Below the pieces are notes generated by a model. That model made no database searches. It was not told the DNA's origin and saw only the letters and a list, made by a program, of their open reading frames with translations. DNA of 64,000 nt from Candidatus Latescibacterota bacterium (lineage in GTDB: Bacteria > Latescibacterota > UBA2968 > UBA8231): contig CBDETY010000003.1 in NCBI GenBank assembly GCA_965243025.1, forward strand, positions 5,216,001 through 5,280,000, read 5' to 3'. Of the stretch, positions 39,312 to 45,015 are shown one piece after another (the first letter of the stretch is position 1; every line of letters starts with the position of its first letter). A program made the position numbers and the translations under genes.

Positions 39312-40286
39312 TCAATCCTGGCCGGGTAGCGAATCTTCCCTGCGAAGATCTGATCCCAAGGATGCCTTGATGCGGCCCCAGGAGACGGATTGCACCGCTG
39401 TGTCCCCGGACTCGCCGCCTGGGCCGAGCAGCACGCCGTCGACCATTGTACTCGCATCACGCCACGTGTCCGGCCTCGAATTTTCGGGTCTGTCCAAAAA
39501 GTACAATGCCCATTTTCCCGAGTCATCGTCATAGTCCATTACCCAGAAATCGAATCCGATGATTGTTCCCTCGGTCAACTGGGACACGTCGCTGTCTTCG
39601 GGGTTCAGATGATTCAAGCGGTCAAAGCAGGTGACGAAGAATTCGACGGACCAGAAAGTGGGGTTCTCGCCCAGTACCGCCCCTCCCCCTTGGGCGAAAG
39701 GGGGTTGCACCATCCACCATTCACCTCCCTTGAGCGTAGTTTCGGGAAGGTCAACCAACGGATCTCCGGCGGCGCGGGAGATAGCCTCGTAAAATTGGGC
39801 TTGCATGTTGATCTTCAGAGGACCATCCAACTCTTCTTCGTGAGTTTGGAACCAGTATAGCCCTCCGGAATGATCTCCGTCGACCATCAAGGTAACGTGG
39901 TCATACTGAAAAAAATGATTGAATATACTAGCGGGGTCGGAGCCGTATTCGTTGTAGTAAGCGTTGTCGGCAAACTGGCCGGCGGCGTGGATTTTCCCGT
40001 CCCGGCTCCAGCCCAGCCAGATGCGGAAATCGAGGTTGGAAGGGTCAAATTGTTCGTATAAAGAAAGTGAGCCAGAGTCCAGGTCGAAATCCAAGGGGGT
40101 CAGGGCCGGTTCTCCGATCGCCTCTTCCCAGTCTTCCACACTGGCGTCGTCCTGGTCGAGAGCGGCCAAGGTTTCCTCCGAGAGATAGCTGATCGGGTAC
40201 AGGCGGTCCCCCACGTGCGATGAAAGGGGGACAACATCTGCCGACATCGCTGCCAACGTCAGGAGAGTTATTGAATGGTACGTCAT
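39312..40286 (-). CDS. Secreted acidic protein A3 (possible CBM9-like fold), array paralog
   Basis: Signal peptide, HVGDRLYPI, NLDFRIWLGW, VDGDHSGG, TAVQSVSWGRIK. Confidence 0.8.
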   Translation of the reverse strand: MTYHSITLLTLAAMSADVVPLSSHVGDRLYPISYLSEETLAALDQDDASVEDWEEAIGEPALTPLDFDLDSGSLSLYEQFDPSNLDFRIWLGWSRDGKIHAAGQFADNAYYNEYGSDPASIFNHFFQYDHVTLMVDGDHSGGLYWFQTHEEELDGPLKINMQAQFYEAISRAAGDPLVDLPETTLKGGEWWMVQPPFAQGGGAVLGENPTFWSVEFFVTCFDRLNHLNPEDSDVSQLTEGTIIGFDFWVMDYDDDSGKWALYFLDRPENSRPDTWRDASTMVDGVLLGPGGESGDTAVQSVSWGRIKASLGSDLRREDSLPGQD

Positions 40287-40423
40287 GATCTCACCGGGAA
40301 GAGCTGCATTGGGGCCAAAATGAATGCCGGGGCGTGCGTCGTGGCATGTCCCGGCGAGGTCATCGGCATAATTTAGGGGCCGGAAGCGAGGTTATCACGG
40401 CTCCCCCTAAGTAGCAACTGCAT

Positions 40424-40699
40424 TTAGCAGTGGCATTTGCAAGGACCTGCATTACATTGGCCGCCGTAGTGTCCGGTAATCTGGCACATCCAGTTGCAAT
40501 ACGAATGGCCCCCATTCTGGTTACAATTTCCCCATGAGTGGTTTCCTGCGTCCGTCAAGCCGGGGCTCGGAGTGCTTACGACAAAGGCGCCTGCGATCAT
40601 CGCCCCGACCGCGCACGCCACCACCAAGGCCTTCCCTTTTCGGACGGTCCCCGTTGCCTCAGCAAAGAGACCTCTCGCTGCCTCAATGATCCTTTTCAT
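40424..40699 (-). CDS. Defensin-like (CS-alpha-beta) peptide precursor D2, 91 aa
   Basis: GGAGGA RBS before ATG 40699; hydrophobic leader; core CNQNGGHSYCNWMCQITGHYGGQCNAGPCKCHC = C-x8-C-x3-C-x9-C-x4-C-x-C plus an extra terminal Cys. Confidence 0.8.
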   Translation of the reverse strand: MKRIIEAARGLFAEATGTVRKGKALVVACAVGAMIAGAFVVSTPSPGLTDAGNHSWGNCNQNGGHSYCNWMCQITGHYGGQCNAGPCKCHC

Positions 40700-41056
40700 C
40701 TTTCGCTCCTCCATGCGGGTTGTTGAAGACTCAACGGCTTCATGCCGCGTTGACGCTGGAGGTACAAAGAAGCGAAAAAAAAAAAAAGAGTTGTCAAGGA
40801 AAAAAACGATCAGCCACTTCCGGGCATAGTCAACAGCTTAGTGGAGAAGCCAAGGGCACCCATTGGGGTTGGTCGTCGACAATAAGGGGTGGCGACGGTC
40901 GAGAGCCGCTGAGGCCGCAGGCCAGGGGGACGGCTCAGTCCTTTCCGGATCGGAAATCTTCCTTACGGAGATCTATTTCCAGGGATGCCTTGATGCGGCC
41001 CCAGGAGACGGATTGCACCGCAGTCTCCCCGGACTCGCCCCCGGGGCCCAGCAGCA
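40572..41056. repeat. Direct repeat copy 1 (~490 bp): D leader + upstream region + 3' end of A gene
   Basis: Highly similar to 43675-44165 by visual alignment; ends approximate. Confidence 0.85.
40775..40797 (-). promoter_or_regulatory. Putative promoter element of D2: TTGACA followed by ACTC and T13
   Basis: Plus strand A13 at 40775-40787 and TGTCAA at 40792-40797; no convincing -10 box at 17 bp. Confidence 0.45.
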
Positions 41057-41888
41057 GACCGTCCGCCCAATTGCTTGCTTGTCTGCGGTTACCCACATAG
41101 GTGGGTTCACCCAGCACGTATGAGGCATTTCGACCTCCGACTTCAACGTCGTAGTCACGCACCCGGACATCGAAACCGATGATCCTTCCCTCGGCCAACC
41201 GGGATACGACACTCTCCTCGGGGGGGCTCAGGTGATGCAGACGGTCAAAGCTGGTGACGAAAAACTCGATCAGCCAGACCGTGGGGTTCTCGCCGAACAC
41301 CCCCCTTCCGCCTCGGGCGAACGGGGGACGTACCATCCAGTCCGGCGGCTCGCCTTGCTCATCGAAAATAAAATCTGTAGTCAAATGCAAACTGATCATC
41401 GGGCCGCCAGGGACGCGGGCAATAGCGTCGTATCCTTGGGCTTGCCTGTTCGTCATCAACTCGTCGAGATCAGGCGGGTCTACAAAAATATACTTGCCTC
41501 CGGTGTGATCCCCGTCGATCAGAAATCTCATGCTGTCGTGAGCCCAGATGAAGTTGGGAAATTCCAGTGGGTCGTATTCGTTCACGTACACGTCGTCGGC
41601 AAACTGGCCGGCGACGTGGATCCGGCCGTCCCGGCCCCATCCCAGCCAGATGCGGAAATCGAGGTTGGAGGGATCGAGTTGGTCGTACGAAGTCCAATCC
41701 GGCTCGGACCACAGGTTGAAATCGAAGGGCGTCAGGGTCGGCTCACCGACGGCATCCTGCCAGTCTTCCACGCTGCCGTCGTCCAAGTCGAGGCGGGCAA
41801 GGGTCTCCTCCGAGAGATAGGGGATCGGAAACAGACGGTCCCCGGCGTGCGCGGCAACCGGGGCGGCTTCAGCTGAAATGGCCGCTAG

Positions 41889-43445: not shown

Positions 43446-43541
43446 CTAGTGTCAGGAGGAATATGGAACGGCGGTTCTTCATGAATCCCCGGATGTCCCC
43501 CCGCTGTCACTGCTGCGAACGGCCTGATCGATGCAAGGTCA

Positions 43542-43802
43542 TCAATTGTAGCAGTAACACAATTCGCCATCACAAGAGCCGCTACGGTGTCCGGTAATAA
43601 TGCACATCCACGTGCAGTACGACTGCCCTCCCGGAAAGTCACAGTAGAAGTAATGCGTATGGCTAGTTTTCGGCGTGCTTACGACAAAGGCGCCTGCGAT
43701 CATCGCCCCGACCGCGCACGCCACTACCAGCGCCTTCCCTCTGCGGACGATCTGCGTTGCCTCAGAAAGGAGACCTCTCGCTGCCTCAATGATCCTTTTC
43801 AT
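43542..43802 (-). CDS. Defensin-like (CS-alpha-beta) peptide precursor D1, 86 aa
   Basis: GGAGGA RBS before ATG 43802; leader nearly identical to D2; core CDFPGGQSYCTWMCIITGHRSGSCDGELCYC = C-x8-C-x3-C-x9-C-x4-C-x-C. Confidence 0.8.
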   Translation of the reverse strand: MKRIIEAARGLLSEATQIVRRGKALVVACAVGAMIAGAFVVSTPKTSHTHYFYCDFPGGQSYCTWMCIITGHRSGSCDGELCYCYN

Positions 43803-44165
43803 CTTTCGTTCCTCCATGCGGGTTGTAGAAGACTCAACGGCGTCATGCCGCGTTGACGCTGGAGGTACAAAGAAGCGAAAAAAAAAAAAAGAGTTGTCAA
43901 GGAAAAAATCGATCAGCCACTTCCGGGGTATAGCCAACCAACAGCTCAGTGGAGAAGCCAAGGGCACCCATTGGGGTTGGTCGTCGACAATAAGAGGTGG
44001 CGACGGTCGAGAGCCGCTGAGGTTTCAGGCCAGGGGGGACGGCTCAGTCCTTTCCGGATCGGGAATCTTCCCTGGGGAGATCTATTTCCAGGGATGCCTT
44101 GATGCGGCCCCAGGAGACGGATTGCACCGATGTGTCCCCGGACTCGCTGCCTGGGCCGAGCAGCA
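43675..44165. repeat. Direct repeat copy 2 (~490 bp)
   Basis: Highly similar to 40572-41056; ends approximate. Confidence 0.85.
43878..43900 (-). promoter_or_regulatory. Putative promoter element of D1: TTGACA followed by ACTC and T13
   Basis: Plus strand A13 at 43878-43890 and TGTCAA at 43895-43900; identical to the D2 copy. Confidence 0.45.
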
Positions 44166-45015
44166 CGCCGTCGACCATTGTACTCGCATCACGCCACGTG
44201 TCCGGCCTCGAATTATCGGGCCTGTCCAAAAAGTACAATGCCCATTTTCCCGAGTCATCGTCATAGTCCATTACCCAGAAATCGAATCCGATGATTGTTC
44301 CCTCGGTCAACTGGGACACGTCGCTGTCCTCGGGGTTCAGATGATTCAAGCGGTCATAGCAGGTGACGAAGAATTCGACAGACCAGAAAGTGGGGTTCTC
44401 GCCCAGTACCGCCCCTCCCCCTTGGGCGAAAGGGGGTTGCACCATCCACCATTCATTTCCAATGATTGTAGTTTCGGGAAGGTCTACCAACGGATCGCCC
44501 GCGGCGTAGGAAATAGCTTCGTAAGACTGGGCCTGCATGTTGCTCTCCAGGGGACCTTCCAACTCCTCTCCATGATGTGAGAACCAGTATAGACCCCCGG
44601 AATGATCTCCGTCGACCATAAAATCAATGTGGTCCCAACGACCGAAACTACTAATGGGATCGGACCCGTATTCGTTGAAGTAAACATTGTCCGCAAACTG
44701 GCCGGTGACATAGATCTTTCCGTCCCTGGTCCATCCCAGCCAGATGCGAAAATCCAGGTTCGCCGGGTCATAATGGTCGTATAAGACAAGGAGGTGTCCA
44801 GAGTCCAAGTCGAAATCCAAGGGGGTCAGGGCCGGTTCCCCGACGGCCTCAACCCAGTCCTCTACGCTGCCGTCGTTCTGGTCAAGAGCTTCCAGGGTCT
44901 CTTCGGAAAGGTAGCTGATCGGATACAGTCGGTCTCCGACGTGTGCGGCAAGGGGAACGACATCTGCTGACATCGCAGCAAAGATCAGAATGAGTATTGG
45001 ATTCCGGTGCCTCAC
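44044..45015 (-). CDS. Secreted acidic protein A1 (possible CBM9-like fold), array paralog
   Basis: GTG start at 45015 gives a signal peptide matching A2/A3 (alternative ATG at 45039); HVGDRLYPI, NLDFRIWLGW, VDGDHSGG, TSVQSVSWGRIK. Confidence 0.8.
   Translation of the reverse strand: MRHRNPILILIFAAMSADVVPLAAHVGDRLYPISYLSEETLEALDQNDGSVEDWVEAVGEPALTPLDFDLDSGHLLVLYDHYDPANLDFRIWLGWTRDGKIYVTGQFADNVYFNEYGSDPISSFGRWDHIDFMVDGDHSGGLYWFSHHGEELEGPLESNMQAQSYEAISYAAGDPLVDLPETTIIGNEWWMVQPPFAQGGGAVLGENPTFWSVEFFVTCYDRLNHLNPEDSDVSQLTEGTIIGFDFWVMDYDDDSGKWALYFLDRPDNSRPDTWRDASTMVDGVLLGPGSESGDTSVQSVSWGRIKASLEIDLPREDSRSGKD

Follow-up and report, generated by a model that had tools for sequence, protein, structure and literature searches.

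A tandem array at positions 39312-45039 of a 64,000-nucleotide stretch from a Candidatus Latescibacterota genome (assembly GCA_965243025.1, contig CBDETY010000003.1, positions 5,216,001 to 5,280,000; hereafter the window) alternates between two kinds of genes, one encoding a secreted protein with a predicted CBM9 fold (A) and the other a defensin-like precursor (D). We tentatively interpret D and A as a two-gene module of a Latescibacterota-type sponge symbiont, in which a secreted peptide is accompanied by a carrier or presumed binding partner, and we give this interpretation slightly less than even credence. D and A would be co-transcribed from a promoter within a constant block repeated along the array and would act together outside the cytoplasm, the lectin-fold A serving as a carrier, chaperone or docking partner of the small D peptide. 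The array would have grown by duplication, and recombination or gene conversion in the ~490-bp block would reshuffle it, so that D is diversified in its core and A in its 5' two-thirds.

The open reading frame (ORF) list and the sequence place five co-oriented genes on the minus strand in the order A1-D1-A2-D2-A3. The array is composed of the following elements:

44044-45039, minus strand: A1, secreted paralog of predicted CBM9 fold, starting at ATG 45039
43700-44172, minus strand: constant block copy 1, comprising the last ~45 codons and stop of A1, the intergenic region and the D1 leader
43542-43817, minus strand: D1, defensin-like precursor, whose homologs begin at the second ATG, 43802
43450-43482, minus strand: first 11 codons of A2 (MKNRRSIFLLT), with the ATG at 43482, severed from the remainder of the gene by an insertion sequence (IS)
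41885-43449, plus strand: IS1182/IS5-like IS of 1,565 bp, with a DDE transposase, inverted ends and copies in the genome
40935-41884, minus strand: A2 body, from the rest of the signal peptide to the stop (ORF list and alignment)
40567-41063, minus strand: constant block copy 2, comprising the 3' end of A2, the intergenic region and the leader of D2
40424-40714, minus strand: D2, defensin-like precursor with a 7-Cys core
39312-40286, minus strand: A3, intact secreted paralog of predicted CBM9 fold

A first-pass annotation had described these five alternating minus-strand genes, and their positions and order stand; the 1,565-bp IS that splits A2 was absent from that description. It had also started A1 at 45015, which is an in-frame GTG and an alternative start; the ATG at 45039 agrees with the start of the homolog P0002. 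The spacings, given as ~60 and ~140 bp, measure 59 nt from the D1 stop to the A2 ATG and 137 nt from the D2 stop to the A3 ATG. No D gene follows A3, whose last 139 nt form a third copy of the A 3' end (83-91% identity). A1 and A3 are 83% identical, and A2 shares ~60% identity with each of them.

The association of D with A was evaluated by a blind screen of the genome, which collected every stop-to-stop ORF in which a hydrophobic segment leads into a short Cys-rich tail poor in Arg, and ignored the positions of A genes. Eleven of the 19 candidates had an A gene start just downstream on the same strand, against 0.53% of the genome lying just upstream of A (P 6.6e-21). The eight unflagged candidates comprised D1 itself, whose A2 partner is displaced by the IS; C3:2825525, which precedes an A fragment and an IS copy; C3:160921, a leader-family member without a nearby A; and five that, by reading, were unlike the D families. 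A looser pass added five loci at which a D remnant, cut by IS or frameshifted, lies upstream of A. D-to-A gaps in the genome span 28-250 nt. Upstream of 62 A array heads, the D families were the only recurrent small ORFs, and D headed about a quarter of these arrays, in layouts from D-A and D-A-A up to D-A-A-A-A.

At least three D classes occur in the genome: a long-leader class that includes D1 and D2 of the window, a 5-Cys CAYxC class (CAY), and odd members outside both. The class of a D gene follows the clade of its A partner. When 83 A paralogs were placed in a tree, all eight partners of CAY-class D genes fell into a single clade of 37 rows (support 100), those of leader-class D genes lay outside it, and none of 500 label shuffles was as good, a clustering that is inflated by kinship and near-copies. 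An identical D-A pair, with identical small ORFs upstream, is found at G000:C3:3346059-3347518 and 6065646-6067105; these two distant copies look like a recent segmental duplication.

Beyond this genome, a CAY profile gave 13 matches in the sister genome G103, with A within 500 nt downstream in 11 of them, the other two being fragments. A leader profile had matches in 29 of the 76 genomes of the taxonomic family. For the best D loci in other genomes, A was downstream in 6 of 28 (G103, G102, G167, G159, G166 and G164), and the best locus of G104 had a PD40 gene downstream. The D-then-A order was also encountered in three other genera. Applied to 76 A loci of named metagenome-assembled genomes (MAGs), the blind screen yielded two Cys-rich candidates, both just upstream of A. 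D homologs and close A homologs were located on equally sized contigs (785,577, 209,214, 85,950 and 13,064 nt), so the array is probably conserved in near relatives. With an alignment of D1 and D2 against metagenome contigs, none of 194 pattern matches was confirmed.

Several observations weigh against a functional D-A pair. About three quarters of the 62 A array heads lack D, and since most A genes are without D, A has a function of its own. The closest paralogs of the window A clade elsewhere in the genome are likewise without D, and the clustering of D partners in the A tree can be obtained from co-duplication alone. The Cys counts in the window are 7 for D2 and 1 for A3, and 6 for D1 and 0 for A2; an intermolecular D-A disulfide was rejected, the Cys parities not co-varying over 22 pairs (table 8/6/5/3). 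The D2 core (residues 50-96) and A3 (residues 22-296, from a 26-row alignment) were also put through a complex prediction without control pairs; its score of 0.01 in both runs, below the mark, speaks neither for nor against binding. In other genomes, 21 of 28 best leader-family loci had no A in their 1.5-kb flank, 74 of 76 A loci had no D, and the closest A arrays in the same-genus G103 and G104 have gaps of 135-168 nt, with no room for D. Finally, nine of the 19 loci in a genus designated g12 have a different secreted family downstream of the D leader family.

These points bear on an explanation without any functional link, in which D genes are independent small secreted genes inserted into, and copied with, an expanding and recombining A family, in a permissive, expressed and non-essential region. 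The huge and mostly D-less expansion of A fits this explanation, as do the same-genus A arrays without D, the other neighbours of the D leader family elsewhere and the tolerance of the region to insertion, with 3 of the 10 IS copies falling in A/D loci, which represent ~2% of the genome (P 8e-4). It accounts poorly for a fixed layout, with D upstream on the same strand at a gap of 59-250 nt, that recurs for three very different D classes and across genera, for pairing at loci without an upstream A, for the position of D at the head of arrays and not scattered inside them, and for the placement of 11 of 19 blind candidates within 0.5% of strand positions. We consider such a passive association fairly unlikely.

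The nine g12 loci (L045-L049, L051, L055, L057 and L058) encode a partner of 410-470+ residues, with a WDFDDGTTQGW N-domain without Pfam match and FG-GAP repeats. A relation of this family to A was tested by profile-profile comparison, which detected none (probability 0.07). One partner-type protein, the upstream ORF in L045, carries a type A sorting tail of the type IX secretion system (T9SS). In three further loci (L052, L053 and L060), the leader is followed by 2-3 tandem Cys-rich modules ending in SSTPCSExE and fused to a T9SS type A sorting domain. TIGR04183 matched both the D-like multi-module proteins and the partner family at 35 bits, for a cut-off of 23. The other seven loci displayed a partner ~1.06 kb downstream past another ORF (L054), a different neighbour or a contig end. 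Sigma-54 activators are encoded upstream of D in several g12 loci.

A carrier role for A is suggested by analogy, because the D-type peptide of the sister genus g12 precedes or is fused to T9SS cargo. The T9SS sorting domain (TIGR04183, NCBIfam) is absent from A and D, with 99 matches elsewhere in the genome; as A has no such tail, the analogy with g12 is indirect, which adds to the points above. D almost always has a larger secreted partner downstream and A is mostly without D, so the dependence, if any, runs from D to its partner. A partner drawn from two unrelated secreted beta-rich families, or replaced by fusion to a secretion tail, would agree with a small disulfide-rich peptide that depends on a larger protein, either export-competent or at the surface. 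The earlier proposal of a recurrent D-A unit thus holds for diverged loci of the genome, for G103 (11/13) and for three other genera; it does not extend to most A genes, which lack D, nor to g12, with its other partner or fusion. Likewise, A is a regular neighbour of D in the genome of the window and in G103, and not at the 21 foreign loci mentioned above.

In a regular-expression scan of all ORFs, both D1 and D2 were found to carry C..CxxxC..GxC..CxC, which agrees with their original description as defensin-like. D1 is predicted to consist of a leader helix and a membrane helix followed by a 6-Cys core of CS-alpha/beta type (cysteine-stabilized alpha/beta). Compared with PDB sequences, the D1 core matched an Anopheles defensin variant (2ny9_X, E 1.6e-3), then lucifensin, sapecin and insect defensin A (E 0.09-0.17), and D2 alone matched only ergtoxin (E 2.1). 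No Pfam or NCBIfam model matched D. An AlphaFold (AF2) model of D2, built from 12 homologs, features a leader helix (residues 2-22), a membrane helix (29-47) and a core with a strand at 59-63, a helix at 70-79 and strands at 83-87 and 91-95, at a predicted local distance difference test score (pLDDT) of 72-77. Seventeen of the 21 rows retrieved with this model by Foldseek were CS-alpha/beta peptides, at a root-mean-square deviation (rmsd) of 0.9-1.6 Å and with E of 1.3-9.6, values that are high because ~30 residues are aligned; the plant defensin-like PDFL2.1, scorpion toxins and heliomicin ranked first. With the whole D2 model, the VIA fold search matched the helical leader only.

Only 12 proteins among 5.8 billion resembled D2. 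In these homologs the leader is almost invariant and the core is variable with conserved Cys; the Cys pattern is kept in 8 of 10 database homologs of D, the other two being incomplete. On the basis of sequence and model, D is thus predicted to be a small precursor of defensin fold (CS-alpha/beta) whose core is hypervariable and whose extended leader, specific to the family, consists of an amphipathic helix and a single membrane helix that precede an Ala-rich site resembling a cleavage site. Its isoelectric point (pI) is 6.2 for D1 and 6.8 for D2, and the net charge of the cores in 12 genome copies ranges from -7 to +3 and is negative in nine, so these cores are not cationic. Antimicrobial defensins are typically cationic, and the predicted neutral to acidic charge of D speaks against a classical antimicrobial defensin.

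This charge bears directly on a bacteriocin-immunity explanation, in which D would be an antimicrobial defensin aimed at competitors, A would neutralise D in the producer, and the D-less A arrays would be orphan immunity genes. The predicted defensin fold and the motif of D, the partner gene immediately downstream and the many tandem D-less A genes are in line with it, and the conserved leader, hypervariable core and tracking of A clade by D class resemble polymorphic toxin-immunity cassettes. Besides the neutral to acidic cores, it is opposed by the nature of A, a 300-residue lectin-fold protein present in ~85 copies, and by the g12 partner, an unrelated large T9SS surface protein that would be odd as immunity. 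In addition, the available text on the actifensin operons describes ABC transporters and a protease, and no such partner (PMC6989792). A toxin with a dedicated immunity protein matches the partner pattern less well than the carrier or binding-partner module does, and we regard it as quite unlikely.

The A proteins had been described as secreted and acidic. A1, A2 and A3 indeed have a hydrophobic N-terminus, a mature part of ~300 residues and a pI of 4.05-4.42. None of these three window copies matched a Pfam model (CBM9_1, PF06452, included) at E<=0.01, or any NCBIfam model. Across the family, 4 of 26 members matched Pfam CBM9_1 weakly at E<=1 (best 7.2e-4), without reaching the gathering score. 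A model of A3 obtained from a 26-row alignment (pLDDT 74, predicted template modelling score (pTM) 0.76) adopts a CBM9/DOMON beta-sandwich, for which the following structural matches were retrieved:

7nwo (CBM9), Foldseek: E 3.8e-10
1i82_A (T. maritima CBM9), VIA: Z 17.2, rmsd 2.7 Å, 185 residues
4jpq_B, VIA: Z 16.0
7b04_C (NxrC), VIA: Z 11.3
2ivf_C (ethylbenzene dehydrogenase gamma), VIA: Z 11.2

The ESM Atlas clusters nearest to A come from Latescibacterota, Gemmatimonadota and Poribacteria, with CBM9_1 in 13-100% of their members. From the model, A would be a Sec-exported acidic protein of the Ca/sugar-binding CBM9-fold type. The beta-sandwich is common to A, to the CBM9 modules of T. maritima Xyn10A (1i82) and C. 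kristjanssonii (7nwo) and to the wider DOMON-like fold, which includes the haem-binding relatives NxrC and ethylbenzene dehydrogenase gamma. Unlike these CBM9 modules, A is a stand-alone secreted protein and not a glycoside hydrolase module, falls below Pfam CBM9_1, exists as ~85 paralogs per genome, and harbors an invariant His at its predicted N-terminus and a SWGRIKA tail. The genome contains 97 matches to the family, corresponding to ~85 genes, many of them in tandem. Of the 75 further genomes in the same taxonomic family, 73 contain A, which also occurs weakly in a few genomes elsewhere in the phylum; A-related records are labelled Candidatus Latescibacterota and, for some, Gemmatimonadota. 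A search of the genome contig collection with A3 only gave no confirmed match.

In the A alignment, the mature protein is predicted to begin with the invariant His (A|H.GDR, residue 24 of A3), and an invariant DGDH.GG motif (residues 136-142 of A3) is also found, as are many invariant Asp and Trp residues, which bear on possible carbohydrate binding. In many D cores, His clusters lie beside the first Cys, and many cores also begin with His. Together, the His and DGDH.GG of A and the His of D cores hint at a possible metal site.

An explanation in which D is never released makes use of the same residues. D would be either a membrane-anchored periplasmic knob, with its leader uncleaved, that senses or regulates, or a His-rich metal-binding peptide acting with the N-terminal-His A. 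In its favour are a leader for which a helix plus a membrane helix is predicted instead of a short signal peptide, the His clusters beside the first Cys of many D cores, the invariant His and DGDH of A, and the sigma-54 activators upstream of D in g12. It is opposed by Ala-x-Ala-like sites, which follow the membrane helix in most D classes, and by the fusion of D-like modules to T9SS tails, which argues for export; we judge it very improbable.

All A paralogs terminate with a (T)AVExxSW(G/A)RIKA motif within 14 residues of the stop, in a low-confidence tail of the model; in the window, these tails are encoded at 39330-39360, 40955-40985 and 44065-44095, at the A C-termini. The SWGRIKA tail was also detected on unrelated secreted proteins (L161-L168), namely three CBM9_1 proteins, two PD40 propellers and one Temptin_C protein, of which L162-L164 pass Pfam CBM9_1 (30.6-35.5 bits for a cut-off of 23.4). 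Because the same tail is found on other secreted proteins, it looks like a general C-terminal tag, perhaps one for sorting or anchoring that has so far gone undescribed; it is distinct from the T9SS domain.

A more specific version of the carrier or binding-partner module can be built on this tag. In plant self-incompatibility, the genes for a Cys-rich peptide and its receptor are linked, which offers an analogy for matched D/A pairs. D and A would then be a polymorphic extracellular ligand-partner pair, in which D exits or reaches the surface only when docked on A with its sorting tag (TAVExxSWGRIKA), and the recombining block would make matched D/A specificities that recognise host glycans, kin or competitors in the sponge. 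We hold this elaboration to be distinctly improbable.

Concerning the evolution of the array, the first-pass annotation had noted a ~490-bp repeat extending over the 3' end of A, the intergenic stretch and the leader of D, with variable segments between its copies. A direct-repeat search combined with a sliding-window alignment of the two units delimited both: the two block copies (44172->43700 and 41063->40567) are 83-100% identical over ~480-500 nt, and the flanking windows are 12-80% identical. Within the block, the non-coding part reaches 90-100% identity. Synonymous divergence (dS) between D1 and D2 is 0.16 in the leader and 1.21 in the core, where nonsynonymous divergence (dN) is 0.59. 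Between A1 and A3, dS is 1.37 at the 5' end and drops to 0.07 towards the 3' end, and between A2 and A1 it is ~1 in the body and 0.12 in the last 13 codons. Since dS is 0.12-0.16 in the block and ~1 in the flanking coding segments, the array is a recombination mosaic and not the product of selection alone, which fits the duplication or swapping of units by recombination at the constant repeats that had been proposed. Judging from these rates, the constant block is of recent origin, whether by copying or by gene conversion, and the diverged segments on both sides of it are old.

Each block contains a TTGACA followed by a run of 13 T (43895-43900 and 43878-43890 in copy 1; 40792-40797 and 40775-40787 in copy 2). 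This T13 run could be a slipped-strand switch of promoter spacing. One metagenome contig displays a 1-nt length variant of the T run at 40775. A sigma-70 promoter scan, which must be read with the caveat that the host phylum may use other promoter types, gave 0 sites in the constant intergenic block and 4 sites in all, each inside the A1/A3 coding sequences, against 2.0 expected. No terminator-like sites were found in the D-to-A or A-to-D gaps of the window.

The IS interrupts A2 33 nt after its ATG, in the signal peptide, and the gene resumes at 41884. The transposase, encoded on the plus strand at 42013-43365, has DUF772 and DDE_Tnp_1 domains (Pfam), and its best NCBIfam match is NF033551 (IS1182; E 2.2e-51), at 175 bits, below the cut-off of 270. 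The terminal inverted repeats read CTAGCAGGC(T/C)GTTGAAAA, with CTAG at both junctions. Ten full copies of 1,560-1,571 nt, 97-100% identical, are present in the genome; the three located in A/D loci, including those at G000:C3:3438064-3439628 and 2823637-2825196, interrupt the signal peptide of A2, the leader of a D gene and the body of an A gene. In the window, the IS takes up 27% of the 39312-45015 interval. As A2 is split, one of the five genes of the array is broken: A2 is knocked out by the insertion.

The G+C content is 0.58-0.62 over the array and a PD40 neighbour (window 38001-46000), for 0.66-0.72 on both sides. The sequencing runs that hold the window stretch include sponge metagenomes, and DNA contigs from three other studies (records 7, 16 and 25) span the D2-A3 junction. 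The metatranscriptome run X20 yielded five short contigs, which cover parts of the A2 body (41291-41682) and of the IS, with D2 and A3 receiving none; as such libraries may contain DNA, they give no transcription pattern.

Among known systems, polymorphic toxin-immunity cassettes and conotoxin-style precursors combine a constant leader or other 5' part, a hypervariable active part, a partner directly downstream, tandem arrays and recombination at constant segments. The array differs from them by a large, secreted and lectin-like partner and by the lack of an adjacent dedicated secretion gene, and we know of no toxin activity for D.

Bacterial cis-defensins are already known (PMC11561630, PMC6989792). 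A survey of their classes I-V (e.g. xanthusin-1; Cardoso et al. 2024) lists, in its accessible text, 74 peptides in Proteobacteria, myxobacteria included, one in Acidobacteria and one in Actinobacteria, and none from Latescibacterota; its pipeline discarded predicted-transmembrane sequences, and a D-like leader could be lost thereby (PMC11561630). Cis-defensins and D have in common a small secreted precursor, with N-terminal tails in some cis-defensins, and the six-Cys CS-alpha/beta motif (CxxxC, GxC, CxC); they differ in that no conserved downstream partner is described in the same text, and in that the D cores are not cationic. The actifensin operons of Actinomyces, as far as the available text goes, likewise encode defensin-like peptides whose leader is conserved and whose mature parts diverge, in up to seven copies per operon, whereas the leader here is a helix plus a membrane helix and the peptide genes alternate with CBM9-fold genes (PMC6989792). 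In the literature on sponge-symbiont defensin-like peptides and Latescibacterota CBM9, supplementary tables excluded, the module is not described, and the word 'defensin' is absent from a paper on Latescibacterota sponge MAGs (PMC12993501). None of this literature describes Latescibacterota as a source of such peptides, the extended leader, a fixed partner gene downstream or the recombining constant block.

The study of defensin-fold peptides in bacteria is still young, and the accessible part of the survey catalogues about 74 of them (PMC11561630). The present data would add a whole bacterial family of sponge symbionts with dozens of predicted defensin-fold peptides that share an extended leader and are each linked to a larger secreted protein. 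Should D and A indeed act jointly, the pair would reveal how diderms handle or export small disulfide-rich peptides, provide a function for a paralog family that ranks among the largest of these genomes, and offer natural matched and recombining peptide-partner variants in an animal symbiosis.

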